Part shown: positions 10,211-52,182 of the stretch, piece after piece
Position numbering within the stretch: the first letter of the stretch is position 1
Layout of the letters: every line of letters begins with the position of its first letter
Source of the DNA: Wohlfahrtiimonas larvae
Lineage (GTDB): Bacteria > Pseudomonadota > Gammaproteobacteria > Cardiobacteriales > Wohlfahrtiimonadaceae
Direction of reading: 5' to 3'
NCBI GenBank assembly: GCA_040394195.1
Contig: JBEBSR010000001.1
Coordinates: 25,585 to 89,584, forward strand
DNA length: 64,000 nt
The notes under the pieces: generated by a model
Databases searched by the model: none
Told to the model about the DNA's origin: nothing
Seen by the model: the letters and a program-made list of their open reading frames with translations, nothing else
Made by a program: the position numbers and the translations under genes

Positions 10211-10462
10211 GTGGCAAAAAGCAAAAATACGGATGAAACAATTGAAGGCAAATTGCATTCAATTGATACAATCATAGAGCAGCTAGAATCTGGCGAGCTA
10301 ACGCTTGAGCAATCATTAAAGTTATTCACTGATGGTACTCAACTCATTCATAATTGCCGTAATATTTTGGATCACACTGCCAAAAAAATTGAAGAAGTTT
10401 CGCAGTCAAAAGTTGCTGAATCACATTCAGATAGCTTTGATGACGATGACATTCCTTTTTAA
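10211..10462 (+). CDS. xseB: Exodeoxyribonuclease VII small subunit
   Basis: IIEQLESGELTLEQSLKLFTDGTQLI; conserved xseB-ispA-dxs order. Confidence 0.92.
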   Translation: MAKSKNTDETIEGKLHSIDTIIEQLESGELTLEQSLKLFTDGTQLIHNCRNILDHTAKKIEEVSQSKVAESHSDSFDDDDIPF

Positions 10463-10483
10463 GCCTCTGTTTAGGTATCAATT

Positions 10484-11347: not shown

Positions 11348-11349
11348 CA

Positions 11350-13203
11350 ATGTCACTCTTAACCCAAATTCAAACCCCACAAGATTTAAAACGTCTCTCA
11401 CCGCAAGAGTTGCAACAACTTGTGAATGAATTGCGCCAGTTTTTAATTAACAGCGTATTAGAAAGTGGTGGGCATTTTGCATCTGGTTTAGGTGTGATCG
11501 AATTAACAGTTGCATTGCATTATGTATTTGATGCGCCGAATGATTCCATTGTTTGGGATGTTGGGCACCAAGCTTATCCACATAAAATTTTGACTGAACG
11601 TCGAGATCAACTTAAATCTATTCGTCAGAAAGATGGCTTAAAGCCATTTCCTTGCCCGAAAGAGAGCAAATACGATGCATTTACAGTTGGCCATTCTTCA
11701 ACATCAGTCAGCGCTGCTTTAGGTATGAGCATTGCTAATGAATTATTGCATGCACATCATCATGCTGTTGCTGTGATTGGCGACGGTGCTTTGACTGCTG
11801 GCATGGCTTTTGAAGCATTGAATCATGCAGGCGCAATCAAAGCAGATATGTTGGTTATCCTAAATGATAACAACATGTCTATCTCACCGAATGTTGGCGC
11901 ACTCAGCAACATGGTGACAAAAACATTATCCAACCCAATCATGCAATCACTCCGCTCTGAAGGTAAACGCTTCATCCAAAGTTTACCATTGCCACATGCT
12001 GTAGAGTTGGCAAAACGCACAGAAGAGCAAATCAAAAACATGGTTGCAGGTGATGGCGGATTATTTGAATCGTTAGATTTCCAATATTTTGGCCCTGTGG
12101 ATGGTCATGATTTACCATCATTGATCAAGATATTACAGAATTTGAAACAAAAACGTGGCCCAAAACTTTTACACTTGATCACGCAAAAAGGTAAAGGCTA
12201 CTCACAAGCAGAATCTGCACCTGTAAAATTCCATGCGGTTTCAGCACCCAAACCTGTTGATAAAGTTGAAACGAAACCTGCCGCAAAAACTTATACACAG
12301 ATTTTTTCACAGTGGATTTGTGATGTCGCAGAAAAAGATCACAAAATCGTTGCAGTGACGCCTGCAATGCGTGAAGGATCTGGCTTAGTCGAATTCGATA
12401 AACGTTTTCCTAAGCGTTTCTTTGACGTTGCGATCGCTGAACAGCATGCAGTAACAATCGCCGCTGGTATGGCAATGAATGGATTAAAACCTGTGGTTGC
12501 GATCTATTCAACATTCTTACAGCGCGCTTATGATCAATTGATTCATGATGTTGCTCTACAAGATTTACCAATTGTATTTGCCATTGATCGTGCTGGCGTT
12601 GTAGGCCCTGATGGCCCAACGCACATTGGTGCATTTGATTTAGCATATTTGCGCATTGTGCCAAACATGGTAATCATGGCGCCATCCGATGAAAATGAAC
12701 AATATCACATGCTAAATTTGGCATTAACTGTGCCGCATCCAACTGCTGTGCGCTATCCTCGCGGTTCAGGTGAAGGCATGGAAGTGACAGAAACATTGGA
12801 CATTCAATTTGGTAAAGCAAACATCATCCGTAAAGGCGTGGATACTGTAATCTTAGCAGTAGGCACAATGCTCCATGTTGCAGAAAAGACAGCAAATGCA
12901 CTCAATGCAACATTAGTAGATTTGCGTTTCGTAAAACCATTGGATGCAGAATTAATTATTGCTGAAGCTAAAAAGCATAGCATTATCATTACGATTGAAG
13001 ATGGCGTTGTGACTGGCGGCGTTGGTACTGCAATCCAAGAATTGTTGGCACAGAATTATATCTTCAAACCAATCAAAACATTTGGTTTACCTGATACATT
13101 CTTAGAGCATGGCGAGCGCCATGAAGTTCTAGAAATGGCAGGCTTAGAAGAAAATCAATTCTTGAAAGATGTAACAGAGTTTAGAGCAAAAATTTTAGAT
13201 TAA
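11350..13203 (+). CDS. dxs: 1-deoxy-D-xylulose-5-phosphate synthase
   Basis: WDVGHQAYPHKILT, GDGALTAGMAFEALNHAG, IAEQHAVT, DRAGVVGPDGPTH. Confidence 0.98.
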   Translation: MSLLTQIQTPQDLKRLSPQELQQLVNELRQFLINSVLESGGHFASGLGVIELTVALHYVFDAPNDSIVWDVGHQAYPHKILTERRDQLKSIRQKDGLKPFPCPKESKYDAFTVGHSSTSVSAALGMSIANELLHAHHHAVAVIGDGALTAGMAFEALNHAGAIKADMLVILNDNNMSISPNVGALSNMVTKTLSNPIMQSLRSEGKRFIQSLPLPHAVELAKRTEEQIKNMVAGDGGLFESLDFQYFGPVDGHDLPSLIKILQNLKQKRGPKLLHLITQKGKGYSQAESAPVKFHAVSAPKPVDKVETKPAAKTYTQIFSQWICDVAEKDHKIVAVTPAMREGSGLVEFDKRFPKRFFDVAIAEQHAVTIAAGMAMNGLKPVVAIYSTFLQRAYDQLIHDVALQDLPIVFAIDRAGVVGPDGPTHIGAFDLAYLRIVPNMVIMAPSDENEQYHMLNLALTVPHPTAVRYPRGSGEGMEVTETLDIQFGKANIIRKGVDTVILAVGTMLHVAEKTANALNATLVDLRFVKPLDAELIIAEAKKHSIIITIEDGVVTGGVGTAIQELLAQNYIFKPIKTFGLPDTFLEHGERHEVLEMAGLEENQFLKDVTEFRAKILD

Positions 13204-17542: not shown

Positions 17543-17632
17543 TGGCGGAAGCAGCAGGAATCGAACCTACCTCAGCCGATAGGCTGACAACGGTGTTGAA
17601 GACCGCGGAGCCCCCAGGACCCATTTACTTCC
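17543..17632 (-). tRNA. selC: tRNA-Sec (anticodon UCA), 12-bp acceptor/T-branch type
   Basis: GGAAGTA...GCGGT-CTTCAAC-ACCGT, long variable arm TCAGCC-TATC-GGCTGA, GTAGG-TTCGATT-CCTGC-TGCTTCC-GCCA; divergent from selAB. Confidence 0.95.
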
Positions 17633-22772: not shown

Positions 22773-22848
22773 TGGTGGGTAGTGAGGGGTTCGAACCCCC
22801 GACCCTCGCCTTGTAAGGGCGATGCTCTACCAGCTGAGCTAACTACCC
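22773..22848 (-). tRNA. tRNA-Val (TAC), copy 2
   Basis: GGGTAGTTAGCTCAGCTGGTAGAGCATCGCCCTTACAAGGCGAGGGTCGGGGGTTCGAACCCCTCACTACCCACCA. Confidence 0.98.
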
Positions 22849-22860
22849 GAGTAGGTGCGT

Positions 22861-22889
22861 ATAATACTGAATGGCCTTGATCATGTCAA
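22861..22889 (-). promoter_or_regulatory. sigma70 promoter for tRNA-Val copy 2
   Basis: TTGACA (22889-22884), 17-nt spacer, TATTAT (22866-22861). Confidence 0.75.
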
Positions 22890-22972
22890 TCTCTTTCGAT
22901 GATCAATTTATTACCAATCAACTTGCTAACGACTTAAGCAATACAACACTAGATTTCTCTAGTCTTTCGATA

Positions 22973-23048
22973 TGGTGGGTAGTGAGGGGTTCGAACCCCC
23001 GACCCTCGCCTTGTAAGGGCGATGCTCTACCAGCTGAGCTAACTACCC
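22973..23048 (-). tRNA. tRNA-Val (TAC), copy 1
   Basis: Identical 76-nt copy exactly 200 nt upstream. Confidence 0.98.
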
Positions 23049-38798: not shown

Positions 38799-39539
38799 AT
38801 GGCTGTTTCAACAAAAAAAGTGAGCTGGTATAAAAAATATGCAAGCTATAAATACTACATTCCTTTGGCAAACGCGATCATTCCTTATTGTTTCTGGGGA
38901 AGCGTGATCCTTGCGATTGTGGGATTGGCTTTAGGCTTAGGTTTTGCACCTGCTGATTACCAACAAGGAAACAGCTTTAGAATCATCTATATTCACGTGC
39001 CTGCGGCAATGTTATCGACATCTTTATATATGGCGATGGCAATCACAAGTTTATGCTTCTTGGTTTGGAAAGTTAAATTATTACCGTTGGTTGCACGAAG
39101 CATGGCAACCATTGGTGCAGTATTAACATTGCTTTCCTTATTCACTGGTGCAGTTTGGGGTGCACCAACCTGGGGCACTTGGTGGGTTTGGGACATTCGC
39201 TTAACATCACAATTATTATTACTATTTTTCTACATTGGCTATATTGCTTTTGATCATGCCATTGAAGATCGCCAAACAGCTGATATTTTCACATCTATTC
39301 TAGCAGTCATCGGTATCGCGGTTGCATTGCTCGTTAAACTTTCAGTGTACTTTTTCAATTCTCTACATCAAAAGAGCACACTTTTTGCATCCGGCGGGCC
39401 GAAAATTCCGATGGATATGTTGTTACCATTGATTTTAATGATCGTAGCTTACTCACTATTTACGACTGGTTACATTCTGAAAAAGAGCGTGAATCTAATC
39501 AATCGTGACAGAGTTATGAAACATTATCTAAATCAATAA
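38799..39539 (+). CDS. ccmC: Heme chaperone-loading protein CcmC
   Basis: YIHVPAA, WGAPTWGTWWVWDIRLTS, LHQ. Confidence 0.97.
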   Translation: MAVSTKKVSWYKKYASYKYYIPLANAIIPYCFWGSVILAIVGLALGLGFAPADYQQGNSFRIIYIHVPAAMLSTSLYMAMAITSLCFLVWKVKLLPLVARSMATIGAVLTLLSLFTGAVWGAPTWGTWWVWDIRLTSQLLLLFFYIGYIAFDHAIEDRQTADIFTSILAVIGIAVALLVKLSVYFFNSLHQKSTLFASGGPKIPMDMLLPLILMIVAYSLFTTGYILKKSVNLINRDRVMKHYLNQ

Positions 39540-39557
39540 TTATATAGTGGGGGCGCT

Positions 39558-39728
39558 ATGACGTTTGCATTTGGGAGCTTTGCAGAATTTCTGCAAATGG
39601 GAAAACATGGTCTCTATGTTTGGTTGAGTTATGGATTTTTCTTAATCTGTGTACTTGGCCTAATTATTCCGCTATTTGGCGAGAGTAAAAAGTTAAAACA
39701 AATTATGAAGCAGGAAGGAATTGAATAA
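39558..39728 (+). CDS. ccmD: Heme exporter protein CcmD (missing from the ORF track)
   Basis: Manual translation MTFAFGSFAEFLQMGKHGLYVWLSYGFFLICVLGLIIPLFGESKKLKQIMKQEGIE; stop overlaps the ccmE ATG. Confidence 0.9.
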   Translation: MTFAFGSFAEFLQMGKHGLYVWLSYGFFLICVLGLIIPLFGESKKLKQIMKQEGIE

Positions 39729-40195
39729 TGACACCAAAACAGAAACAACGTGGCATCATCGTTGTTGCGTTAGTGGTTATCACACTCGCAGCAATCGGCT
39801 TACTCATTTACGCATCAAGAAGTGAATTGAATTACTATTATTCACCCATTGAAGTGAAAGAAGGTAAAGCACCTTTAGAACGTTCGATCCGTATTGGTGG
39901 CTTAGTTGCACCTGGTTCAATTGTGAAAAGTACTGAAACAATCGATATCGCGTTTGACATTATGGATGGTAAGGATCGTGTTCGTGTCACTTACGACAAA
40001 ATGTTACCTGACTTATTCCGTGAAGGCCAAGGCGTGATTGCAACAGGACTTTTGAAAGATCAAAATAACTTTGTTGCGACCGAAATTTTAGCGAAGCATG
40101 ATGAAACATACATGCCACCTGAAGTGAAAGAATCTTTAGAAAAATCTGGCATCGTGATCGATGAAAATTCCAGACATCCTGGCTCACAGCCTTAA
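39728..40195 (+). CDS. ccmE: Heme chaperone CcmE
   Basis: LPDLFREGQGV, LAKHDETYMPPEV. Confidence 0.97.
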   Translation: MTPKQKQRGIIVVALVVITLAAIGLLIYASRSELNYYYSPIEVKEGKAPLERSIRIGGLVAPGSIVKSTETIDIAFDIMDGKDRVRVTYDKMLPDLFREGQGVIATGLLKDQNNFVATEILAKHDETYMPPEVKESLEKSGIVIDENSRHPGSQP

Positions 40196-40208
40196 TTGAG
40201 GAGCTAGC

Positions 40209-42188
40209 ATGTTACCATTTGGCGAATTAGCACTTTATATTGCACTAGCAGCATCTTTGTTACTGCTATTCCTACCATTAGTAGGATTATCTACTCATAA
40301 TATTAAACTCATGCAAACAGCAAAACCGCTGACAGCATGGGTTTTCTTTATGCTTTTAGTTTCATTCTTATTTTTAGGCTACGCCTTTTATGTGAATGAT
40401 TTCAGTTACTCTTATGTATTCAAAAACTCCAATACACAATTACCTGCAATCTTCAGATTCACAGCAATCTGGGGTAGCCATGAAGGTTCTGTATTACTTT
40501 GGGTACTAACATTATCTTTATGGATGTACGTTGCGACTCTATTCATGCGCAAAGTACCTATTGAATTGACAGCAACAACACTTGCAATCCTCGGTGCAAT
40601 TTCAGCTGCATTCATCGCATTTGTCATCTTTACATCCAACCCATTTGATCGCATGTTGGATAATCTTGCATTTGATGGTCGTGACTTGAATCCATTATTA
40701 CAAGATGTTGGCTTAATCATTCATCCACCATTGCTTTATATGGGCTATGTTGGTTTTGCAATTCCTTATGCTTTCGTATGTGCAATCTTAATCAATGGTT
40801 ATATTGACCGCACAACTGTACGTTGGTTGCGCCCTTGGGTATTAGCAGCTTGGGGCTTTTTAACATTAGGTATCACCGTTGGTAGCTGGTGGGCTTATTA
40901 TGAATTAGGCTGGGGCGGCTGGTGGTTCTGGGATCCAGTTGAAAACTCATCACTGATTCCTTGGATTTTATCAACAGCATTGCTTCACTCATTGATTACT
41001 ACTGAAAAACGCCAAGTATTCTCTGTTTGGTCAGTATTGATGGCAATCTTATGTTTCTGCTTAAGCGTATTGGGTACATTCCTTGTTCGTTCAGGCGTAT
41101 TAACATCTGTTCACTCATTTGCTGCTGATCCTCGCCGTGGTGCAATCATCTTGATGATTTTGGCAATGGTTGTGATCTTTGGTATTGCATTATTGTTATT
41201 CCGTTCTGGTCGTATTCGCCAGCAAGCTACTGTTGCTTTGGTTTCTAAAGAAACAGGTATTCTATTGAATAACATCTTCTTATCAGTAATCTGCTTCATT
41301 GTTGTGTTAGGCACATTGTATCCATTGATTGTTGACATGTTGGCAATTGGTAAAATCTCAGTGGGTCCGAACTTCTTCAACAAAACTGTTAATCCTTTAG
41401 CAATGATCTTATTAGTGATCATGGGTGTAACGCCAATGATTCGCTTTAAGAAAGATCAATTGAGCCGTATTAAGAAGCCACTCATTTTCATGGCAATCGC
41501 ATCGTTGATCATGGGTCCATTATCCAATGCGCTTTATGTGATGTATGTGAATAACTTAAGCCATAACAATGAACCAGCACTGCCTTTAATTAACCCAATG
41601 GTGACATTGTCATTGATCTTATGTTATTGGGTGATCTTCGGCATCTTGGCTGAAATTTTCGTTCATAAACCAAAAAATGCAGGATTCATCAAAGGTTTCT
41701 TCTCTCAGTCATTGTCACGTGTTGCAATGAACTTAGGTCACTTTGGTACTGTAATTTTAATCATTGGTGTCACAATGACAAGCTATTACAGCGTTGAAGC
41801 AGACCGTTTATTACGCGTTGGCCAAACTGAAGCTGTTCAAGGTTATGACTTTAAATTGGAAAACCTCCAAGATATTAAAGGCCCGAACTATACAGCAACA
41901 AAAGGCACATTCTCAGTGAGTTTCCAAGGTGAATTCTTGAAGATGATGTATCCAGAAAAACGTGTTTATGCTGCAAGCGGCATGCCAATCAGTGAAGTTG
42001 CATTACGTGCATCATTATTGGATGACTTATACATCGCATTATCTGAAGAGCGCCCAGGCGAGAGCTGGGCAATCCGTTTATATGTTAAACCATTCATTCG
42101 TTGGATTTGGTTAGGTGGCATCATCATGGCTGTTGCAGCTTTGGTGGCAATGTTCAGCTTACGCCGTCCAGAACGCTCTGAGAAATAA
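40209..42188 (+). CDS. ccmF: Cytochrome c heme lyase CcmF
   Basis: WGSHEGS, LNPLLQD..HPPLLYMGY, WGGWWFWDPVEN, LTSVHSFA. Confidence 0.98.
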   Translation: MLPFGELALYIALAASLLLLFLPLVGLSTHNIKLMQTAKPLTAWVFFMLLVSFLFLGYAFYVNDFSYSYVFKNSNTQLPAIFRFTAIWGSHEGSVLLWVLTLSLWMYVATLFMRKVPIELTATTLAILGAISAAFIAFVIFTSNPFDRMLDNLAFDGRDLNPLLQDVGLIIHPPLLYMGYVGFAIPYAFVCAILINGYIDRTTVRWLRPWVLAAWGFLTLGITVGSWWAYYELGWGGWWFWDPVENSSLIPWILSTALLHSLITTEKRQVFSVWSVLMAILCFCLSVLGTFLVRSGVLTSVHSFAADPRRGAIILMILAMVVIFGIALLLFRSGRIRQQATVALVSKETGILLNNIFLSVICFIVVLGTLYPLIVDMLAIGKISVGPNFFNKTVNPLAMILLVIMGVTPMIRFKKDQLSRIKKPLIFMAIASLIMGPLSNALYVMYVNNLSHNNEPALPLINPMVTLSLILCYWVIFGILAEIFVHKPKNAGFIKGFFSQSLSRVAMNLGHFGTVILIIGVTMTSYYSVEADRLLRVGQTEAVQGYDFKLENLQDIKGPNYTATKGTFSVSFQGEFLKMMYPEKRVYAASGMPISEVALRASLLDDLYIALSEERPGESWAIRLYVKPFIRWIWLGGIIMAVAALVAMFSLRRPERSEK

Positions 42189-42197
42189 GGAGTTAAT

Positions 42198-42749
42198 ATG
42201 AAAAAACCTATGATTGTTGGTATTACTGTTGCGGCTTTAGTGGGAATTTTTGGTTTCTTCTTTACAACATTATGGAATGATCCAAGTAAGTTACCTTCTC
42301 AATTAGAAGGTAAAGCAATGCCTGAATTCAGCACAAATAAGCTTTCAGCACCTGGCAGTATTTCACAAATTCTAACAAATGATGACATCAAAGGCCCTGC
42401 ATTAGTGAATGTTTGGGCAACTTGGTGCCCTACTTGTAAAGAAGAACATGAAACATTGAATGTATTGAAAACTCAAGGCGTCAATATCTATGGTGTGAAC
42501 TATAAAGATGATTCTAAGTTGGCTCATGAATGGCTACAAGATTTAGGCGATCCTTATCTTTTCAGTTTTTCAGATGCTAGCGGTGCAATTGGTATTGAAT
42601 TGGGTGTTTATGGCGCACCAGAAACATTCTTCGTAGATAAAAACAATGTGATCCAATATCGTCATGTGGGTGCAATCCTGCCTGATATTTGGAACAGCAA
42701 GTTAAAAGCGATTTATGAGTCTCTTGATAAACAAGGAGCGCAACCATAA
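42198..42749 (+). CDS. ccmG: Thiol:disulfide oxidoreductase CcmG/DsbE
   Basis: NVWATWCPTC, GVYGAPETF. Confidence 0.95.
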   Translation: MKKPMIVGITVAALVGIFGFFFTTLWNDPSKLPSQLEGKAMPEFSTNKLSAPGSISQILTNDDIKGPALVNVWATWCPTCKEEHETLNVLKTQGVNIYGVNYKDDSKLAHEWLQDLGDPYLFSFSDASGAIGIELGVYGAPETFFVDKNNVIQYRHVGAILPDIWNSKLKAIYESLDKQGAQP

Positions 42750-43207
42750 TGAAAAAGTTATTAATGCTTGCATTATTCTTGGGCGCAATTGCAACAGCAA
42801 ACGTCAATATTTATTCATTCAGTGATCAAGTGAGCGAAAAACGTTTCAACTCACTCATCACAGATTTACGTTGCCCTAAATGTCAAAACCAAAACTTGGC
42901 AGATTCAGATGCGCCGTTGGCTAAAGACTTGAAAGATCGTGTTTATAGCATGATCAATGATGGCAGAAGTGATGGTGAAATTTTAACATTCATGGTGGAT
43001 CGCTACGGTGATTTCGTATTGTATACGCCGCCAGTTAAACCTCTCACTTGGTTCTTATGGTTCGGCCCTGCCGCAGTTTTAATTGGCGTTTTGATCATCA
43101 TCTTTGCGCGCCGTCGTAAACCTGCCGTTGACACTGTACAACCTTTATCACAATCAGAAACAGAGCAATTGGCTGAGCTGTTAAATAAAAAGGATACTCA
43201 TCAATGA
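42749..43207 (+). CDS. ccmH: Cytochrome c biogenesis protein CcmH
   Basis: LRCPKCQNQNLADS, RYGDFVLYTPP. Confidence 0.95.
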   Translation: MKKLLMLALFLGAIATANVNIYSFSDQVSEKRFNSLITDLRCPKCQNQNLADSDAPLAKDLKDRVYSMINDGRSDGEILTFMVDRYGDFVLYTPPVKPLTWFLWFGPAAVLIGVLIIIFARRRKPAVDTVQPLSQSETEQLAELLNKKDTHQ

Positions 43208-44940
43208 TTTTTGCATCTTTCCTCCTTTTCGCGCTGACAATATTGGTAATTTTTTACCCATTGACTCGCTCCAAATCAGCACAGCAAGAAGTAACATTGC
43301 TAGAGATCTATCAAAAGAACTATGTTGCAACGGAAAAGCGTCTGTCAGCTGAACTAAGCAGTGGTAAATTAACACAAGCAGAATATGATGCTCAAAATGC
43401 AGAAGCTGCACGTGATTTATTAAAAATGAGTAAAAAAGATAGTACAAATCTCTCTAAACCTGCGCGTTTATTGGTTGTATTGATTGCTTTGCTCTTCCCT
43501 GTTTTGGCAATTGGTGGCTTCTGGGCATTTTCATATACGCCAGAAACTCGCACATTTGATGCTGAACGCTCTCGTTTAATCAATGAATTTACAGAATGGC
43601 GTGAAATCATTCCGACATCTGAATTGGATTCATTGAATGGGATCTTAGCCATTGAACCTCAACCACGTAATCCTGAGATCTTCAATGAATTGAAATATGG
43701 CTTCCCTGCTTTATTCTTTATGAGTGCAAAAGATACACATGACAATATCCCAACTTTAAAATTATTGGGTAAACTGTTGTACGATGTGAAATGGCTCAGT
43801 GCTTCCCACGAAGTTTACACGCGCGTTTTATCATTAACACCAACTGATTTCATTGCTAATGCAATGATCATCGACATTGAAATGCAAAGTGCTAACAACA
43901 AGTTAACACCTGCAATCATGGGAAAAATGGAACGTTTCTTCGCTTTGTATCCTGCAGAAACTTCTATGCGTGTGATGTATGCACAAGCTTTGTATGACAA
44001 TCAAATGATTGACAAATCTGTAGAGCAATGGCGCATTTTGCGCGAACTATTCGCACAAAACAGCGACCCTTCACGTAAAGAACAGATGCAACAAACATTG
44101 CAAGCAATTGATATGATCATTACTTCAGTTTCTCAACAAGCGATGGAAACAGCGCAAGTTCGCAACTATGTGATCGATTTAAAAACATTTGCTGATCTAG
44201 ATTGGAGTAAGTTATCTACACCATCTATTTTGACGTTGTATATGATCGATCAAGAAGAAAATACTTCTGTGGCTTATAAAGAAGTATTGATCACGCCAGA
44301 TGCTAAATTCCCAACAGAATTATCATTGAATGACTTTGATCGCTTTGATGATGTGAAAAGCCCTATCCGCAATTTTGAGCATTTAGCTGTATTTGGTGAA
44401 ATCACTAATGTTGATAATGGCGAATCAGTTTATGTAACGGATATGTCTCAATTGGCAAAAGGTGCTTATGAAAGCGCAGTAATGTTCGAGCCAAACTCAG
44501 AAGATCATGCATTCTCTGAACCAATGCAAAAAACTGTGGATTTAGTGAAAGCGAAAAAAGATCAACGCTTCTTAGTGCAAGTGAATGCACCCAATGTTGA
44601 TTTAAGCGCTTGGCCTGATGATGCAACTTTAAACTTGTTCATTTCTCCTGCGGGTTCTCGTATGCCATTAGCAGCTAAGAAAATTCCTTCAGCGAAAAGC
44701 TTAACGTTCCCATTAACAGTTAAAATCACGGATGACAACAAATTAATACAAGGCTCGCCAAGCTTATTCACTATGGAAAACTTGGAAGTGGGTGGTCGTT
44801 TGAGCCAAGGTTCAGATGTTGTGGGTAAAGCTGGTGACATTGAAAGTGCTAAACAAGCAGTTTCGCCAAGCAAAGCAAACGTAATTATTTTAGATCAAGT
44901 GCGTGAAGAATCTAAAGCTTCACCCATCATGGCTCAATGA
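43204..44940 (+). CDS. ccmI: CcmI/CycH apocytochrome chaperone (extended C-terminus)
   Basis: Two N-terminal TMs around a helical loop, TPR-like helices, C-terminal MPLAAKK..FPLTVKITDD domain. Confidence 0.8.
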   Translation: MIFASFLLFALTILVIFYPLTRSKSAQQEVTLLEIYQKNYVATEKRLSAELSSGKLTQAEYDAQNAEAARDLLKMSKKDSTNLSKPARLLVVLIALLFPVLAIGGFWAFSYTPETRTFDAERSRLINEFTEWREIIPTSELDSLNGILAIEPQPRNPEIFNELKYGFPALFFMSAKDTHDNIPTLKLLGKLLYDVKWLSASHEVYTRVLSLTPTDFIANAMIIDIEMQSANNKLTPAIMGKMERFFALYPAETSMRVMYAQALYDNQMIDKSVEQWRILRELFAQNSDPSRKEQMQQTLQAIDMIITSVSQQAMETAQVRNYVIDLKTFADLDWSKLSTPSILTLYMIDQEENTSVAYKEVLITPDAKFPTELSLNDFDRFDDVKSPIRNFEHLAVFGEITNVDNGESVYVTDMSQLAKGAYESAVMFEPNSEDHAFSEPMQKTVDLVKAKKDQRFLVQVNAPNVDLSAWPDDATLNLFISPAGSRMPLAAKKIPSAKSLTFPLTVKITDDNKLIQGSPSLFTMENLEVGGRLSQGSDVVGKAGDIESAKQAVSPSKANVIILDQVREESKASPIMAQ

Positions 44941-45584
44941 TAATGACATTTGCTGAATTCACATTAGCTATTGACGATGTCAGCGCAACGCGTAATTACC
45001 GTAAGGTTTTTACACCTGTTTCGCTGACATTGAAAAATGGCATGAGCCTTTATATCGAAGGTGAAAATGGCGCAGGAAAGACAACTTTCCTGCGTGTTGT
45101 TGCGGGCTTAAATAATATCTACTTGGGTAATATTCTCTATAACGATGTTGATCGCAAAGAACTTGCTCACACTTATAATCACAATATTCTCTATGTTGGG
45201 CATGCACTTGGCTTAAAAGAAGATCTTACAGCCTTTGAAAACATTCAAGCGATGCTTAAAATTCAAAATGTACAACGTACAGATGAAGAGATCAGAACAG
45301 TATTTGAAATGCTTTCCATTCCTGCACAAGATCGTGCCATTCGCTTTTTATCCGCAGGGCAAAGACGCAGAGTTGCATTGTCTCGCTTATGGTTAGAACC
45401 CAAAACTATTTGGATTCTCGATGAGCCATTTACAGCATTAGATAAGCGTTCCATTGAGATTTTAGAAGCCGCCATCACAGAACATTATCAAAAAGGTGGC
45501 ACAGTTATTTTCACTTCTCATCAAACGCCTTCAGAAGGTGTGTATAATCATCACCATGTTATTGAAAGCTACAGGAAAGAATGA
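44937..45584 (+). CDS. ccmA: ABC ATPase CcmA
   Basis: GENGAGKT, YVGHALGLK, LSAGQRRRVALSRL, WILDEPFTALD. Confidence 0.95.
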   Translation: MIMTFAEFTLAIDDVSATRNYRKVFTPVSLTLKNGMSLYIEGENGAGKTTFLRVVAGLNNIYLGNILYNDVDRKELAHTYNHNILYVGHALGLKEDLTAFENIQAMLKIQNVQRTDEEIRTVFEMLSIPAQDRAIRFLSAGQRRRVALSRLWLEPKTIWILDEPFTALDKRSIEILEAAITEHYQKGGTVIFTSHQTPSEGVYNHHHVIESYRKE

Positions 45585-46249
45585 GTGTATTCACCGCGAT
45601 CATTCAACGTGATCTACAACTAGGCATGCGCCAACGCACAGAATTACTGACGCCCATGATCTTTTTCTTGATCGTTGTGAGTCTGTTTCCGCTCGGTTTA
45701 GGGTTGGATAATGAAAAAGTCATGCGTGATGTTTCGCCTGCCATTTTATGGATTGGTGCTCTATTGTCGAACATGTTGATTATGGATCGCTTATTCAAAA
45801 GTGATTATGATGATGGCTCTTTAGAACAATTGATGCTCTCTGGCTCGCCACTTGTTGTGGTTGTATTTGCTAAGATTATTGCACATTGGTGCTTAACTGC
45901 TGTGCCACTCATCATCATTTCACCAATTTTAGGCTTAATGCTCTACTTTTCTGTGCCACAAGCACTAGAAACCACATTCCTTTTACTCATTGGCACGCCA
46001 GTTTTAAGTTGCATTGGTGCCATTTGTACAGCTTTAACACTACAATTAAAACGTGCAGGCTTATTATTGAGTATCATTGCACTACCATTATTTTTACCCG
46101 TACTAATTTTTGGCGTACAGGCAACACTTCGCATCGTTGAAGGACATTCTGTGATCGGCTTTTATGCTGTATTTGCAGCCCTCGACTTGATCACGCTTGC
46201 CGTCGCCCCATTGATTACAGCTTTTGCACTGCGCATCAGTCTTAACTAA
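45581..46249 (+). CDS. ccmB: Heme exporter permease CcmB
   Basis: LFKSDYDDGSLEQL, AHW, LLLSIIALPLFLPVLIFG. Confidence 0.96.
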   Translation: MSVFTAIIQRDLQLGMRQRTELLTPMIFFLIVVSLFPLGLGLDNEKVMRDVSPAILWIGALLSNMLIMDRLFKSDYDDGSLEQLMLSGSPLVVVVFAKIIAHWCLTAVPLIIISPILGLMLYFSVPQALETTFLLLIGTPVLSCIGAICTALTLQLKRAGLLLSIIALPLFLPVLIFGVQATLRIVEGHSVIGFYAVFAALDLITLAVAPLITAFALRISLN

Positions 46250-46266: not shown

Positions 46267-48363
46267 ATGACAAAAAAAACAACACCATCCACCAACATGG
46301 AATATTCTGAACAATTACCGCCATTGGTACAATCGTGGATTTTAACCATTATTTTGGATTTAGGTGGCCATCGTGAATTTATCCATAAGGATTTTTTCAG
46401 TGATGATCAACTAGCTACAGCGCTTTCATTGGATAAATGGATCAACCATAAACCACCATTGAACCGTGCAGATATTTTAAAAACATTACGCGAGCAGCAA
46501 GAGAAACTCTTGGCTGATCCAACATTGTTCACAACAGCATATAATCATGATCTTCGCCACAACTTGGACAATCTCAAAACATTGATAGATCTCTCTGATG
46601 TGGAATGTACTTTATTAGAATTCACATTGATCACTTACAATGAAACATTGTTGAACAATGCGTTAGATTTATTGGGCGCAATCAGTTCAGATCAAATGTA
46701 TCGCATTTTATCTGTGCTCTTACAGAAAACACCGCAAGAAATTCGCACGGCATTTGCATCAGATGGCACATTAGCGCGCACAGGTTTAGTTCGTGTTCAT
46801 CATGGCCCTTCTCTATTCTTCCGTGGCAAAGTAGATTTATTGTCTCGCAACTTTATTGAAGCAATGTTTTCACATGAAACAACACCGTACAATATCTTAA
46901 AAGATGTTGTTTCTAAGTCTAAACCAACAGAATTAACTTTAGATAATTTCGGTTACTTAAAAACTGAATTATCTGTTTTAGTGCCTTATTTACAGCATGC
47001 TTTGGACAATAATGAAAAAGGTGTGAATATCCTTGTGTACGGTGAACCTGGTACAGGGAAAACAGAACTCGCACGCGTTTTGGTGGAATATTTTAAAGTT
47101 TCTGCTTATGAAGTGGTTTCTGAATCCATACAAGGTGAAGGCGTAGAAAAAGGCGAACAGCGCTTATATGCTTATTTAGCTGCGCAAAACTTCTTCTGTA
47201 ATCAAAAATCATTGATCATTTTTGATGAAATTGAAGATGTATTCTTTGATGCTTCATCAGAAGGCTTACCAAACTTCTCCAAAGCCTGGTTCAACCATAT
47301 TTTGGAAACCAATAAAATTCCAACCATTTGGATTTGTAACGATACTTACGAAATTGATCCTGCCATCATTCGCCGTTTCGATTTCACATTCCATTTGGCA
47401 CCACCACCAAAATCAGAACGTAAAGCAATGCTCGAATCAGCATTGAAAGGTTCACTCAGCCCAAATACTTTGAATGCTTTAGCATTATCGAAAGATTTGG
47501 TGCCTGCAATCATTGATCGCACTGCAAAAGTTCTCAATACCATCGAGAAATCTTTGGATGTGAGCTACGATGAAGCTGCCGCTGCCATCATCAATGGTAC
47601 TTTGAAAGCACAAGGCAATGATGAAATTCGTATCGCTAAAATTGGTGGTTTGAGTGATATTTATAACCCAGCATTCACAAATACAGATAACAATTTGGCA
47701 CTATTAGCTGAGCGTTTGAAAGTATTCAATGAAGCTCGTATTTGTTTATACGGTGCTTCGGGCACTGGTAAATCAGCGTTTGCACATTACTTATCGGATT
47801 ATCTCAACAAGCCTTTGCTCATCAAAAAAGTATCAGACTTGATGGATAAATACGTGGGCGAAACTGAAAAACAGATCGCTGCTGCATTCCATGAAGCCAA
47901 TACAACAGGCGCAATCTTGTTGATGGATGAAGTGGATAGTTTCTTGCGTGATCGCCGCCATGCTCAGCAGAATTATGAAGTCACAATGGTGAATGAAATG
48001 CTGACACAAATGGAAGAATTTTCAGGCATTTTCATTGCGACCACAAACTTGATGGATCATTTGGATCAAGCAATGCTCCGCCGTTTTGACTTTAAAGTGA
48101 AGTTTAGTTACTTAACATCAGAACAAGCTTGGTTACTCTTCAACGAGCAATGCCGTTATTTGGGCTTTAAAGAGATTGATCCTGCATTGGAAGAGAGCTT
48201 TAAGAAACTCACAAGCCTAGCACCTGGCGACTTTGCAATTTCTGCCCGCCAAGCAAAATTGGGCGTAATCACAAAACCTGAAGAGATCATCACACAGCTT
48301 GTTAAGGAAAATGATTTGAAACAAGCCAAAGGCACTACAATCGGGTTTGTGGCAAGTAAATAG
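46267..48363 (+). CDS. Double-domain AAA+ ATPase with N-terminal helical domain
   Basis: AAA1: GEPGTGKT, IIFDEIED, ICN, IIRRF. AAA2: GASGTGKS, LLMDEVD, ATTN, MLRRFD. C-terminal IGF. Confidence 0.92.
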   Translation: MTKKTTPSTNMEYSEQLPPLVQSWILTIILDLGGHREFIHKDFFSDDQLATALSLDKWINHKPPLNRADILKTLREQQEKLLADPTLFTTAYNHDLRHNLDNLKTLIDLSDVECTLLEFTLITYNETLLNNALDLLGAISSDQMYRILSVLLQKTPQEIRTAFASDGTLARTGLVRVHHGPSLFFRGKVDLLSRNFIEAMFSHETTPYNILKDVVSKSKPTELTLDNFGYLKTELSVLVPYLQHALDNNEKGVNILVYGEPGTGKTELARVLVEYFKVSAYEVVSESIQGEGVEKGEQRLYAYLAAQNFFCNQKSLIIFDEIEDVFFDASSEGLPNFSKAWFNHILETNKIPTIWICNDTYEIDPAIIRRFDFTFHLAPPPKSERKAMLESALKGSLSPNTLNALALSKDLVPAIIDRTAKVLNTIEKSLDVSYDEAAAAIINGTLKAQGNDEIRIAKIGGLSDIYNPAFTNTDNNLALLAERLKVFNEARICLYGASGTGKSAFAHYLSDYLNKPLLIKKVSDLMDKYVGETEKQIAAAFHEANTTGAILLMDEVDSFLRDRRHAQQNYEVTMVNEMLTQMEEFSGIFIATTNLMDHLDQAMLRRFDFKVKFSYLTSEQAWLLFNEQCRYLGFKEIDPALEESFKKLTSLAPGDFAISARQAKLGVITKPEEIITQLVKENDLKQAKGTTIGFVASK

Positions 48364-48369
48364 GAAAGC

Positions 48370-48960
48370 ATTATAAAAATCCTCCATGTTACAGATATAC
48401 ATTTTAGAAGCTTTGTTTTTGATTGGATTCAAGAACAACAAAATCTCTATGATGCGATCTGTTTAACAGGGGATTTTTTAGATGAAACTTGTGATACAGA
48501 TATCATTGGTCAAATCACTTGGATAAAAGAATGGCTTTTATCCTTTGAAATCCCTGTATTTGTTTGTAGTGGTAATCATGATGTAATTGCAGGTTCAACC
48601 AAATGGCTGGCTAAATTGCCTTATGGCGATGGCTCAATCACTAAAATTAATAATATAACTATTGGTTGTGCGCCTGAGGATTGCGAAGATTTTTATAAAT
48701 ATCGTAACTGCGATATTTTACTTCATCATTATCCACCATCAGGCAGTAAAGCTGCGACAGATGAATATGGCAATAATTTTGGTAATTTTTTTCTAAAACA
48801 AGATCTCAAAATACTGAATTGCACATATATTCTATGTGGGCATATTCACCAACCAACCGCCCGAATGGTTCGAAGAACTCAAAACCCTGATCGATTTATC
48901 TATAATGCAGGCGGAAATCATAAACCAGATAAGGTTCGACATTTAGTTATTGAAATATAA
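48370..48960 (+). CDS. Calcineurin-like metallophosphoesterase (non-canonical or lost start)
   Basis: Extending the 48616 ORF upstream gives IIKILHVTDIH...LTGDFLD...SGNHD...LLHH...CGHIH, i.e. all five motifs. No ATG/GTG/TTG precedes motif I. Confidence 0.85.
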   Translation: MIKILHVTDIHFRSFVFDWIQEQQNLYDAICLTGDFLDETCDTDIIGQITWIKEWLLSFEIPVFVCSGNHDVIAGSTKWLAKLPYGDGSITKINNITIGCAPEDCEDFYKYRNCDILLHHYPPSGSKAATDEYGNNFGNFFLKQDLKILNCTYILCGHIHQPTARMVRRTQNPDRFIYNAGGNHKPDKVRHLVIEI

Positions 48961-48969
48961 TAGGAGAAG

Positions 48970-50199
48970 ATGATGGATCAAAAAGAAAGAGATTCACTTT
49001 CCAATGAGCTACTGAAATATAAAAAATTCCTACAACAACGTGAAGAAGAAATTCGCCAAGGTAAAAACAACTATAGCTTGATTGGCTCTTTACTTGGCAT
49101 TCATGATGAAGTGAGATTACATTCACGTTTTATATATTCAATGATTAATCCTAATGGCTCGCATTTTCAGAATGATCTTTTCTTAAAATTATTCATTGAA
49201 TGTATTGATCCTGAAATTTTGAAAAACTTTAATTTAAGTAATGCTCTGGTTTTTAAAGAAAGAGATAACATTGATCTATTAATTGAAGATGGTAATACAT
49301 TTATTATCATTGAAAATAAATTACATGCTCTTGATCAAAAAGCCCAAATTTCACGTTATATCAAAGAAGTGCAGAATAATAACAACGATGCCAATATTAC
49401 AATTATTGTCGTCTATCTTTCTATTGCAGGAAAAGACCCCGATGATATATCACTTCAAGACGATGAAGAACCAAAAAATTTAGAGAAAGCATATAAAATC
49501 AAAAATCATCAATTAATTAACGATCAATACATTTTTGAGTATTATCCTATAAGTTATCAATATAATATTTCTCAGTGGATTCAACAAAGTCTTGTAAAAA
49601 TAAACAATGTCAGTAATTTATATAATGCTTTTTCTGAATATCAGAATATTGTTAATAGAGTAAATAAACTTATGAACCATAATTCAGTATCAACATTTAC
49701 AGATTTTATTTTGAAACAGGATGTTATAGAAATAAATAAATATCTACAGTTTTCAGCTAATGTTGTACAAAATCTCCATAAAATTTGGGCTACACAGATC
49801 ATTAATACTATTTACTCTGCGCATCAATTATCTGAGCTCATCATATCTGATGAACAAAATGATTTAATCATCACAGAAGATAACTGTGATATTGCTATTA
49901 ATAAATTATGTAATTGGCTTAATCGCTCAGGAAATCCTGAAGACTACAAAAATATGAAACTATATTTCTACAATAAAAATAGAAATAAAAAAAATGTTTT
50001 AGTCTTTGGAGTGATTGTTCTTTATATTGGTGCCTACAATAAAAGTTTTTCAGACGTTGCCAATACTGAAAATAAGAAAAAAAATGCATTATTTGGTGTA
50101 GGTAAAGATTTTAGAAATATCATTACTCATCCAAATATGGCAGCACAGGTATGTTCAAAAATTAAAGAACGTATTGAACAATTAATTAACCAAGAATAA
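48970..50199 (+). CDS. PD-(D/E)XK nuclease (PDDEXK_4-like)
   Basis: DEVRLHSRFIYSMINPNGSH, IDLLI...IIIENK...DQKAQISRY; GGAG SD directly after the upstream stop. Confidence 0.85.
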   Translation: MMDQKERDSLSNELLKYKKFLQQREEEIRQGKNNYSLIGSLLGIHDEVRLHSRFIYSMINPNGSHFQNDLFLKLFIECIDPEILKNFNLSNALVFKERDNIDLLIEDGNTFIIIENKLHALDQKAQISRYIKEVQNNNNDANITIIVVYLSIAGKDPDDISLQDDEEPKNLEKAYKIKNHQLINDQYIFEYYPISYQYNISQWIQQSLVKINNVSNLYNAFSEYQNIVNRVNKLMNHNSVSTFTDFILKQDVIEINKYLQFSANVVQNLHKIWATQIINTIYSAHQLSELIISDEQNDLIITEDNCDIAINKLCNWLNRSGNPEDYKNMKLYFYNKNRNKKNVLVFGVIVLYIGAYNKSFSDVANTENKKKNALFGVGKDFRNIITHPNMAAQVCSKIKERIEQLINQE

Positions 50200-50201
50200 C
50201 C

Positions 50202-50226
50202 AAAAGCCCTCAACGAGGGCTTTTTT
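50202..50226. terminator. Terminator between the nuclease and PIN genes
   Basis: AAAAGCCCTC-AAC-GAGGGCTTTTTT. Confidence 0.85.
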
Positions 50227-50233
50227 ATTGAGT

Positions 50234-50911
50234 TTAAGCAGTCATTTTAGTGAGGAAATCTTGCATTCGGTTGGCATTATATTTCACAAGATTGCCTTGG
50301 TTTTTGATGTGCACAACATCCAAAAACTCCATGCGGCTGATCACATGGCTCACTAAATGTTCGCGTGCTCTGTCCGTCATATCGCGGGCTTTAAGCTGTG
50401 CACGAATTGAATTCCGTAAGCCTTCCAATTTTACAGGGCGAGAGCAATCTTCGATCTTATGAAGCATTCTGCACATTTTAATGAGCACAGAATCGAACTG
50501 TAATTCTTTATCACTTCGTGTTGTGCCTACACGCTTGGCTTTTTTATCAGGTGCGCGATTCACTAGATTAATGATGGCATCGAAATCTTTATCATTAGAA
50601 TAAATTTCAAAGCGATCATATTGCTCAAAGTAACAGCCGAGCATAAAAGTAATGCCAAAATCCGCAGAATTATTAGCAGTATCGCCCATTTTGATGAGTT
50701 CTAAGCGACCTTGTATCACAAAGTTACTCAGTGCAGTTAGCCAATCTAGGGGAATTTTCACGCCAGTGTTGGCGTAGCAGATCACAACTTTATGATATTC
50801 TTTGAACTCTAGGATGAGTTCTGTGATCTTTGAGGGGCAGTTTTCAATATCTATGAACAGAATTGAGCGTTGAGAATTATCGGGTAAGTTAATAATTGTT
50901 TTATCTCGCAT
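50234..50911 (-). CDS. PIN/NYN-fold ribonuclease-like protein with C-terminal winged-helix-like domain
   Basis: LFIDIEN, NSADF, IYSNDKDF acidic PIN motifs; AAGGAG SD. Confidence 0.8.
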   Translation of the reverse strand: MRDKTIINLPDNSQRSILFIDIENCPSKITELILEFKEYHKVVICYANTGVKIPLDWLTALSNFVIQGRLELIKMGDTANNSADFGITFMLGCYFEQYDRFEIYSNDKDFDAIINLVNRAPDKKAKRVGTTRSDKELQFDSVLIKMCRMLHKIEDCSRPVKLEGLRNSIRAQLKARDMTDRAREHLVSHVISRMEFLDVVHIKNQGNLVKYNANRMQDFLTKMTA

Positions 50912-50998
50912 AGTTGCACTCCTTTGAAATGAAACTCACTTGATGCTATCAGTCTTTTTTGACAGTTTTTTGACAAACACAATTTTATTTTCACGCAT

Positions 50999-51022
50999 AA
51001 AAAAAAGCGGCTTTCGCCGCTT
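50999..51022 (-). terminator. Terminator of the YkvI-like gene
   Basis: AAGCGGC-GAAA-GCCGCTTTTTTTT on the minus strand. Confidence 0.85.
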
Positions 51023-51063: not shown

Positions 51064-52182
51064 TTAGCCATAAACAACTTTCGACAACTGCCCGTCTTTT
51101 TCCAACCTTTTCAACTTCAATGGGCCATAGAAGATGATTCCAATCAGCACAATGCCAGCATACCCAGCAAATGGATAGAAATAACCCATCAACTGAATGA
51201 AGCCCACGAAGCTGATACAAAAGCCAACTGCTAAAATAGCTAATACTGCGATGCGTGACTTTTTTGTTTCCATTTCAAAATAGCGTGATGTGAATACATA
51301 GAACATGCTCACAGCTGTACTATAGATCATCGCCAATGCAACCATACTTAACAATGAACTCAAAGCTGGCGCATAAGTATTCATGATCTGTAATGAAGGC
51401 ATTTGTGCCAATGTTTCAACGGTTGGTGCGATGATTTTGATTTGTGCAAACAATGCAAAGTGACCCATTGCTAAAACACCACCGATGATTAAACCACCCA
51501 AAGCACCGCCTAAACGTGCAACTTTTGGATCTTTTTCTTCACCACCGATCACTAATGACATACCAACGCCTGCAACTGTCATCATTGTTACGTGGTTAAT
51601 TGCTGCTACCCACCAATTTGGTAACGTACCTGGCAATGTTTTACCCACAGCCATCACATAATCATTCAACTCTGCAAATGTTTCTGTTTGGTTGGATAAA
51701 CCTTGATAAATCATGATAGATAACAAGGCAATCAATACAGGAGTAATCATACCAATCACTAAGATGATATTGCGTAAGCGAAGCATCAATGTGCCCACTA
51801 CAAGCAATGTCATGATCAAAGAACCCTGCCAATAAGGCATGCCATATTGTTGCTGAAACAGTGCTCCACTGCCCGCTAACATGATGATACCTGTACCAAT
51901 CATCATGATGATGATTAAGATATCTACAAATTTACCCGCTGTTTTACCGCCTACAAGATAAACAGCTTCTTTGTAGTTTTTGGATTGTAAGCGTTGACCT
52001 AAGCCCACAACAAAGTAACCCACAATGCCATATAAAGCTGTTGCAAGTAGTACACCTGTAGTTCCATTTAATCCAAATGATGTGTAATAAAAAAATGGTT
52101 CCATACCAGAAGCATTACCCGCACCAACGACGACGCTCGCATAAGCGAAGCCGATGATTAAAATTTCTAACACTTTCTTCAT
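51064..52182 (-). CDS. YkvI-like multi-TM transporter
   Basis: FAYASVVVGAGNASGMEPFFYY, about 10 TMs. Confidence 0.8.
   Translation of the reverse strand: MKKVLEILIIGFAYASVVVGAGNASGMEPFFYYTSFGLNGTTGVLLATALYGIVGYFVVGLGQRLQSKNYKEAVYLVGGKTAGKFVDILIIIMMIGTGIIMLAGSGALFQQQYGMPYWQGSLIMTLLVVGTLMLRLRNIILVIGMITPVLIALLSIMIYQGLSNQTETFAELNDYVMAVGKTLPGTLPNWWVAAINHVTMMTVAGVGMSLVIGGEEKDPKVARLGGALGGLIIGGVLAMGHFALFAQIKIIAPTVETLAQMPSLQIMNTYAPALSSLLSMVALAMIYSTAVSMFYVFTSRYFEMETKKSRIAVLAILAVGFCISFVGFIQLMGYFYPFAGYAGIVLIGIIFYGPLKLKRLEKDGQLSKVVYG

Follow-up and report, generated by a model that had tools for sequence, protein, structure and literature searches.

Behind ccmB, the last gene of a cytochrome c maturation cluster in Wohlfahrtiimonas larvae, lie three tightly packed genes for a double AAA+ ATPase, a metallophosphoesterase and a PD-(D/E)XK nuclease of the PDDEXK_4 family, and the question raised by this locus is whether they act together as one new anti-phage system. 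Such a system had been proposed (hereafter the original prediction) for positions 46267-50226 of a stretch of 64,000 nucleotides (nt) from this species (assembly GCA_040394195.1, contig JBEBSR010000001.1), which we call the window. Comparison with related strains and with distant homologues leads us to favour a different answer, with a probability of about 0.6: the locus would be a mosaic, in which a conserved ATPase is the anchor of a hotspot lying behind it, the nuclease is an independent cassette of the PDC-S26 type, and the phosphoesterase is an accessory gene translationally tied to the ATPase. A single discrete three-gene system fails as an explanation, because the ATPase stands alone and under constraint in Wohlfahrtiimonas chitiniclastica, the nuclease behaves as a swapped cassette, and no fixed set of the three genes was found elsewhere.

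Conservation of the ATPase behind ccmB

The ATPase was found directly behind ccmB in W. chitiniclastica (locus L082, 85% amino acid identity), in a second relative (L083, 66%) and in a sister strain of the window (L092, 98.6%), and the genes that follow it were different each time. The site in W. chitiniclastica has neither the phosphoesterase nor the nuclease nor the convergent PIN7 gene, and the ATPase gene is followed, after 65 nt that include a terminator, by the gene for a 372-amino-acid (aa) protein (L082 10163-11281). In L083 the next gene encodes a 657-aa protein (10295-12268) that had no Pfam match and no meaningful PADLOC match, and which may be another occupant of the same hotspot. 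The order in L092 is ccmB, ATPase, phosphoesterase, two other genes, terminator and PIN7. Since the ATPase is kept behind ccmB in all three while its followers vary, it is an old, fixed resident of the site. The ratio of nonsynonymous to synonymous substitution rates (dN/dS) between its copies in the window and in L092 was 0.021.

Both AAA modules of the protein are intact. The first (D1) carries GEPGTGKT (Walker A, residues 259-266), LIIFDE (Walker B, 316-321) and RRFD (369-372), and the second (D2) carries GASGTGKS (496-503), ILLMDE (550-555) and RRFD (605-608). D2 also contains the loop KYVG, in which G531, together with the nearby E534, was invariant in 66 ATPase homologues. A loop made of an aromatic residue, a hydrophobic residue and glycine is the substrate-threading feature of classical AAA proteins, and the KYVG loop was assigned as pore loop 1 on this basis. 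An AlphaFold2 model (predicted local distance difference test score, pLDDT, 86.7) consisted of a helical N-domain (about residues 19-215), D1 and D2, and its top Foldseek matches were Cdc48, Rix7, p97, AFG2 and NVL (E values from 1e-19 to 1e-17); a profile search of Protein Data Bank sequences returned VAT, Cdc48 and p97.

The tandem D1-D2 arrangement, Walker A, Walker B and RRFD motifs in both modules and the KYVG loop in D2 are thus shared with the type II AAA+ proteins Cdc48, p97, VAT, Rix7, NVL and AFG2. In contrast to Cdc48, the N-domain is in the model all-helical, with about 200 aa, and not a double-psi barrel plus a beta-barrel; in contrast to Cdc48-type unfoldases generally, D1 has no obvious aromatic pore loop, and sequence identity is only about 18-20%. 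Because of the pore loop of D2 and the fold, we consider a hexameric unfoldase or remodeller the most likely role for this double-ring ATPase, which is vertically conserved at the end of the ccm cluster in this lineage. The helical N-domain would pick the substrate, which would then be threaded through the D2 pore loop. This N-domain is confined to the N-terminal end of bacterial proteins about 700 aa long, of which clustering at 50% identity gives 531 representatives. No model among those searched in Pfam, NCBIfam and PADLOC spans the whole family.

Cassette exchange behind the phosphoesterase

The window and L092 are about 90% identical up to 48960, the end of the phosphoesterase stop codon, and again from 50202, with nothing alike in between. 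In the window this slot has a G+C content of 25-29%, against about 39% around it. It holds there the nuclease, with catalytic residues D102 and E115-N-K117, and in L092 it holds a pair of genes matching PDC-M18A (E 1.5e-26) and PDC-M18B (E 1.8e-53). Further contents were observed in public sequencing runs (X3, X9, X25, X27, X28 and X33), and the RNA runs, with long and evenly covered contigs that maybe reflect DNA carry-over, served for variant structure only, not for expression. Strains in X3 and X9 carry the PDDEXK_4 cassette at about 99.4% identity although their flanks match at only about 90%, which, with the low G+C content, points to a recent transfer of the cassette. A second PDDEXK_4 allele, only 52% identical, lies between the same flanks behind the same phosphoesterase in another strain, L187. 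In X33 and X25 the phosphoesterase has an insert of 1057 nt behind it, and in X27 one of 882 nt comes directly after the ATPase stop, without the phosphoesterase. One form in X9 joins 48359 to 50233, apparently lacking the phosphoesterase and the nuclease together. The right junction lay at 50198-50233 in every variant seen, and contig depth within single samples decreased from ATPase to phosphoesterase to cassette.

No notable direct or inverted repeats and no Rfam match were detected around 48364-51000, and no integrase was found in this region of the window. With neither integrase nor flanking repeats, the exchange is most simply explained by homologous recombination between conserved flanks, and the homology arms appear to be the ATPase or the phosphoesterase on the left and the terminator or the PIN7 gene on the right. 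In the mosaic that we favour, the stretch between the ATPase stop and the conserved terminator would be a recombination hotspot at which small defence-type cassettes are exchanged via these flanks.

The nuclease itself fits a self-contained unit. It matches the PADLOC model PDC-S26 over most of its length (E 4.7e-47, residues 9-370 on model positions 7-349 of 413), with five more PDC-S26 models also matching, and PDC-S26 is catalogued in PADLOC-DB among candidate defence systems, as a single gene. Like such a single-gene candidate, the window copy, although only 9 nt behind the phosphoesterase, behaves as a mobile cassette: it has its own AGGAG ribosome-binding site, it is exchanged within one cassette bounded at 48960 and 50202, and a 48% identical homologue occurs with neither ATPase nor phosphoesterase in Ignatzschineria larvae (L185/L186 5001-7874). 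It would by itself be a DNA-cutting effector, whose C-terminal half of about 185 aa is likely sensing or regulatory. The Ignatzschineria gene has two tight, co-oriented followers, encoding proteins of 293 aa (with a faint HTH_19 match) and 243 aa (no match).

Translation and selection of the metallophosphoesterase

The middle gene was assigned by PF00149 (54.5 bits, gathering cut-off 21.5), and its metal-ligand motifs DIH, GDF, GNHD, LLHH and GHIH are all present. In 27 homologues D8, H10, GD, GNHD, H119, GH and H159 were invariant, along with three cysteines that are the family's own. However, no ATG, GTG or TTG precedes the DxH motif, so that a mechanically called open reading frame (ORF) begins only at TTG 48616, and public gene calls shorten the protein to 114, 134, 145 or 160 aa. 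In the alignment of homologues, ATG stands at the codon where the window has ATA. This ATA is in the same frame as the ATPase, 9 nt after its TAG stop, and is preceded at 7 nt by a Shine-Dalgarno core, AGGA. The TAG, AGGA and ATA are kept in all four strains compared at this junction (window, L092, L187 and L181), whereas the two intervening codons differ.

Between the window and L092 (synonymous divergence, dS, about 0.38) the phosphoesterase gave a dN/dS of 0.10 over the whole gene and 0.12 upstream of TTG 48616. Because purifying selection extends to the part upstream of this TTG and the junction is conserved in four strains, the full-length protein is, as judged from the sequences, made and selected. 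The gene could also be taken for a pseudogene, given its missing start codon and a protein divergence of about 10% against 1.4% for the ATPase; this was rejected on account of the dN/dS of 0.10, the frame intact in four strains and the motifs kept. Translation most likely occurs by reinitiation, once ribosomes have terminated at the ATPase stop, with low-level read-through of the in-frame TAG, which would give a fusion protein, as the alternative. The phosphoesterase would then be an accessory phosphodiesterase, probably made at a low level tied to that of the ATPase, and the conserved ATA start behind an in-frame stop is a small case of translational coupling.

The AlphaFold2 model of the phosphoesterase (pLDDT 96.4) had GpdQ, Rv0805, TT1561 and MPPED2 as its nearest folds, followed by Mre11/SbcD, and by sequence it matched SbcD at 3e-7. 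The two-metal fold and all ligand motifs are shared with the class III cyclic-nucleotide or glycerophospho-diesterases Rv0805, GpdQ and MPPED2 and with Mre11/SbcD, at template-modelling (TM) scores of about 0.55-0.66 and identities of 12-18%, but unlike Mre11/SbcD the protein has no Mre11 capping domain and no SbcC/Rad50 partner. This ranking of the modelled fold weakly suggests a small diester or nucleotide as the substrate rather than DNA ends. PADLOC returned a partial match to PDC-S10 (residues 113-166, E 1e-10).

Neighbourhoods of the two families

The ATPase family is widespread in Proteobacteria and Campylobacterota, with some members in Bacteroidota and Chlamydiota, and also occurs on plasmids. 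Its surroundings were surveyed in 80 loci with distant homologues and, for neighbour counts, in 81 loci. A helix-turn-helix (HTH) regulator of the HTH-WYL-WCX type was present in 29 of the 81 (36%), mostly adjacent, a PF02146 sirtuin in 9, DUF2779 in 7 and PDDEXK_4 in 4. Other genes directly downstream of ATPase homologues encode a DSP-phosphatase, GGACT, GmrSD, NTP_transf_8 and a beta-flower protein, and several overlap the ATPase stop. Three plasmid arrangements were seen: Macro, ATPase, DUF2779 and WYL, then PLD plus helicase, beside a McrBC-like pair; ATPase, WYL, two unknown genes and SNF2; and ATPase, RtcB, a PD-(D/E)XK gene and WYL. A PADLOC scan covering 120 neighbour proteins assigned 19 to its WYL model, with scattered matches to PDC-S01, PDC-S26, HEC-06 and SspE. 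According to the summary in PMC11601596, HTH-WYL regulators of the CapW/BrxR kind are reported to activate associated immune operons upon phage infection or DNA damage. An unverified and unannotated entry labelled 'Bacteriophage sp.' (MT835507.1, L178) carries a 37% identical ATPase homologue, followed by a WYL regulator and a convergent SIR2 gene.

For the phosphoesterase family, 84 loci were collected (80 by a metagenome scan and 4 others), reaching at most 5 kilobases (kb) on each side and often on short contigs. The phosphoesterase typically ends a row of co-oriented genes, with an upstream gap of -10 to +20 nt in 42 of 69 loci, and the genes before it vary (DUF2779, MBL-fold, HDAC-like, an FtsZ_C-like small protein and others); before some homologues stands a lipocalin gene, before others a 215-aa gene with a WYL regulator next to it. 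With tight gaps behind such varied genes, tight packing is a habit of the phosphoesterase family and is not specific to the ATPase. A shared upstream partner was considered for the 214-aa and 215-aa genes of L095 and L087 and rejected, since they are unlike each other and unlike the ATPase. A WYL regulator occurred in 27% of the loci, usually adjacent. In W. chitiniclastica a 63% identical phosphoesterase lies in an island with GmrSD, HsdR, YgjP-like, Rce1-like and integrase genes, without the ATPase. No ATPase was seen on the retrieved stretch in 74 of the 84 loci.

Both families thus occur near WYL regulators, GmrSD, McrBC-like, SIR2, DUF2779 and PDDEXK_4 genes. WYL, SIR2, DUF2779 and PDDEXK_4 are companions common to both, with Macro, HDAC-like and MBL genes on the phosphoesterase side, and in loci L096-L175 (for example L129, L143, L150, L160, L166 and L128) they are joined by the FtsZ_C-like small protein and a NERD-helicase. 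We refer to these genes, which frequent the same WYL-associated islands, as a guild. No description of the ATPase family or of this guild was found in the literature searched.

When the phosphoesterase, the nuclease and the PIN7 protein were searched by phmmer against the 80 distant ATPase loci, the phosphoesterase was found in none and PDDEXK_4 in one. The conclusion drawn from this ATPase-side search, that the families do not co-occur at all, was overturned by the metagenome scan made from the phosphoesterase side. Where ATPase, phosphoesterase and PDDEXK_4 families do meet, neither order nor orientation is conserved, and the co-located ATPases are 27-60% identical between lineages, the one in L165 being divergent (27-33%) and partial. 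At least 350 members of the ATPase family were counted among the 600 pattern matches listed from a scan of 185,579 species genomes, and its true frequency appears to be low. Because the family seems this rare, family-level co-localisation is, by a rough estimate and not a computed statistic, far above chance. Co-occurrence of the three genes in other genomes therefore holds at the level of families, without fixed order, but not as a fixed operon.

Alternative explanations

Several results weigh against the mosaic. A probable dependence of the phosphoesterase on the ATPase for its translation speaks for a functional link between the two in this lineage. At many ATPase homologues, genes for SIR2, DUF2779, DSP-phosphatase or GGACT lie at -10 to +40 nt downstream, and such varied, tightly coupled enzymes fit a motor with interchangeable partners. 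An ATPase-profile match lies within 5 kb of the phosphoesterase in 10 of 84 loci, from about five independent lineages, and PDDEXK_4 in 11 of 84; in L129 the ATPase, PDDEXK_4, phosphoesterase, Macro and WYL genes stand on one strand, with the three families within 5.6 kb. Most slot variants, moreover, are assembler contigs of metagenomes and possibly chimeric, so that single forms need confirmation, although the slot borders recur across the variant contigs. Finally, no experimental report was found in the literature for PDC-S26 or PDC-M18, both of which are candidates.

In a broader and more novel reading, the Cdc48-like family of about 700 aa, with its private helical N-domain, would be the core of an undescribed, often WYL-controlled conflict or damage-response module with interchangeable small enzymes. 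We put it forward as a speculation that is somewhat unlikely as matters stand. The enzymes would comprise the phosphodiesterase, sirtuin, Macro, DSP-phosphatase and the DUF2779 and PDDEXK_4 nucleases, and the window would represent a minimal version, with a phosphodiesterase slaved to the ATPase by the ATA start or by a TAG read-through fusion.

A modular defence system, which generalises the original prediction by making the ATPase a conserved sensor or motor with interchangeable downstream effectors, often under WYL control, is in our judgement unlikely. It would account for the coupled enzymes of distant homologues (SIR2 overlapping by 10 nt in L014, a phosphatase by 4 nt in L008, DUF2779 in L006 and L019), for the WYL-WCX regulator beside so many ATPase genes, and for the co-localisation of the three families, as in L054, where PDDEXK_4 follows the ATPase. 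It would also explain why the phosphoesterase, without a canonical start, sits behind the ATPase stop, and why the gene after the ATPase varies within the genus. However, a lone motor should not persist, yet W. chitiniclastica maintains the ATPase without an effector under strong constraint, and many loci of Comamonadaceae appear to do so as well. Order and orientation are unfixed where the families co-occur, the window contains no WYL gene, and the nuclease brings its own ribosome-binding site and is found in Ignatzschineria with no ATPase beside it. The SIR2 partners, furthermore, are classical sirtuins of PF02146, and defence SIR2 effectors usually belong to other families.

We regard it as quite improbable that the phosphoesterase and PDDEXK_4 act as a two-gene module that stands behind the ATPase by chance. 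Such a pair does recur without the ATPase in L095 (phosphoesterase 56% identical, a gap of 57 nt, PDDEXK_4 42% identical), and is found 200 nt apart in L149 and with one small gene between in L127; moreover, the 52% identical nuclease allele of L187 stands behind the same phosphoesterase, and the form in X9 apparently lacks both genes. Nevertheless, what comes after the phosphoesterase is PDC-M18AB in L092 and the 1057-nt insert in X33, no PDDEXK_4 gene was found near the phosphoesterase in 73 of 84 loci, and many other genes stand before it. For PADLOC, PDC-S26 is a single-gene candidate, and the border of the cassette falls between the two genes.

A role outside immunity is likewise quite improbable, though compatible with the mosaic as far as the ATPase is concerned. 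The genes would then form a WYL-controlled set for DNA damage, repair and stress, with the ATPase pulling proteins off DNA as an unfoldase, the nucleases and the phosphoesterase processing DNA ends, and Macro and SIR2 proteins taking off ADP-ribosyl or acyl groups. This suits the neighbours (WYL-WCX, Macro, classical SIR2, HDAC-like, MBL/beta-CASP-like, DUF2779 with RecB-like and RNase H-like parts, RtcB and a TM0106 RecB-like nuclease), the strong conservation of the ATPase at the end of a housekeeping cluster and the response of CapW/BrxR-type HTH-WYL regulators to DNA damage besides phage, as far as summarised in PMC11601596, but not the dedicated restriction neighbours (GmrSD, McrBC-like, HsdR, and PLD plus helicase sets), the patchy distribution of the ATPase family, which includes plasmids, or the cassette swapping, low G+C content and divergent alleles in one slot that are typical of defence genes.

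Comparison with known systems and implications

The original prediction had set the three genes apart from Septu, Gabija, Ppl, Dodola and IetAS, and this stood, with no profile-level membership by PADLOC or NCBIfam. PtuA matched the window proteins only at E 0.003-0.006, DolB matched at 2.2e-12 on a generic AAA stretch (residues 492-621), and GajA, GajB and PplA gave no match in the PADLOC run. The best PADLOC and NCBIfam match of the ATPase was IetA (Gao_Iet, IetAS; E 9.6e-36), which belongs to the same classical AAA clade, but the match covers only D2 (residues 484-656), and the score with the NCBIfam model NF042959 (IteA), 107.3 bits, is far below its cut-off of 510. Judged by the length of its models, IetA has a single AAA module and about 370 aa, whereas the window ATPase is tandem, and in place of the S8 protease IetS its neighbours are Metallophos, PDDEXK_4 and PIN7 genes. 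BrxR/CapW-type HTH-WYL-WCX regulators, which accompany both the ATPase and the phosphoesterase families elsewhere, are missing from the 64-kb window.

The setting is nevertheless defence-like, as had been supposed: the nuclease matches PDC-S26, the slot holds PDC-M18AB in the sister strain, and neighbours of the families are of defence type. In the literature, PDC-S26 is listed as one of the systems often found in pipolins, and PDC-M18 as cargo carried by P4-satellite hotspots (PMC11551731, PMC11754643). As in P4-satellite hotspots and pipolins, conserved flanks in the window surround alternative small defence candidates with sharply divergent alleles; unlike them, the slot has no flanking integrase, no att repeats and no satellite or pipolin genes.

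As to novelty, the third gene is in PADLOC already, as the PDC-S26 candidate; the hotspot architecture is of a familiar type, and the ATPase family and the guild appear to be undescribed. If the mosaic is true, the locus shows in clear natural form how a small chromosomal hotspot for defence genes can exist with no integrase; its one slot has sharp borders and at least four to five alternative contents among close strains, two PADLOC candidates among them. These natural, isogenic-like slot variants make PDC-S26 and PDC-M18 easy to test for any anti-phage phenotype that they may confer. The ATPase is the more interesting lead, as a sizeable Cdc48-like bacterial family of which one in three members stands beside a WYL gene and in which sirtuin, Macro, nuclease and phosphoesterase neighbours recur. 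Its target, once found, could reveal a new protein-level control in phage defence or in DNA-damage responses.

Layout and flanks of the locus

The physical description given in the original prediction was largely borne out (Table 1). The three ORFs lie on the same strand with gaps of 6 and 9 nt, all the listed catalytic motifs are present, with Pfam support for all three proteins, and an intrinsic terminator follows the trio. Its hairpin is G+C-rich with A-runs and T-runs on both sides, so that transcription can end there from either side, for the + strand genes as well as for the convergent PIN7 gene. Three points needed revision. An insertion between ccmB and a metabolic cluster holds for the stretch from 48364 to about 51000, but not for the ATPase, which occupies the same place in W. 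chitiniclastica without the other genes. The trio does not adjoin the metabolic genes, since the PIN7/NYN gene and the 372-aa protein gene lie between. The middle gene is intact in motifs and frame, but not in having a canonical start codon.

Table 1. Coordinates of features at the ATPase locus of the window (positions in the 64,000-nt stretch).
Feature	Position	Strand	Basis and remarks
ccmB	45581-46249	+	last gene of the ccmCDE-FGHI-AB cluster; left context; 17 nt separate its end from the ATPase start
Type II tandem AAA+ ATPase, 698 aa	46267-48363	+	Pfam AAA twice, E 2.9e-44
D2 pore-loop-1 codons, K528-Y-V-G531 (KYVG, residues 528-531)	47848-47859	+	read from the translation
ATPase-phosphoesterase junction	48361-48375	+	TAG stop 48361-48363; AGGA Shine-Dalgarno core 48362-48365; ATA 48373-48375
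Metallophosphoesterase, about 195 aa	48373-48960	+	PF00149; ATA start, or ATT at 48370; open frame 48370-48960, 196 codons
Cassette slot, G+C-poor	48961-50201	+	own AGGAG ribosome-binding site and PDDEXK_4 gene
PDDEXK_4 nuclease, 409 aa	48970-50199	+	PF14281, E 1.2e-26, 94.2 bits against a cut-off of 22.3
Intrinsic terminator hairpin, bidirectional	50202-50224		AAAAGCCCTC-AAC-GAGGGCTTTT; terminator scan; conserved in L092
PIN7/NYN protein, 225 aa, predicted RNase	50234-50911	-	PF18475, E 5.7e-17; PF01936; convergent to the trio
372-aa protein gene, right-hand anchor	51064-52182	-	ORF; no Pfam or NCBIfam match

The cytochrome c maturation genes (38799-46249) are ordered ccmC-D-E-F-G-H-I-A-B, with ccmAB last and a dihydrofolate reductase gene upstream, and three related genomes share this arrangement, including the ATPase 17 nt after the cluster. 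PF03379 (CcmB) matched the same gene in L001, L082, L083 and L092. The ATPase is probably transcribed by read-through from the ccm genes. A link of the ATPase to cytochrome c maturation was considered and rejected, as ccm genes were found in none of the 80 distant ATPase loci.

The PIN7/NYN protein had no PADLOC match, and its gene was found neither in ATPase-family nor in phosphoesterase-family loci. Between the window and L092 the protein is 98.7% identical, with a dN/dS of 0.019. Elsewhere in the window, a tRNA-Sec gene and two tandem tRNA-Val(TAC) genes were located at 17543-17632 and 22773-23048, on the - strand.

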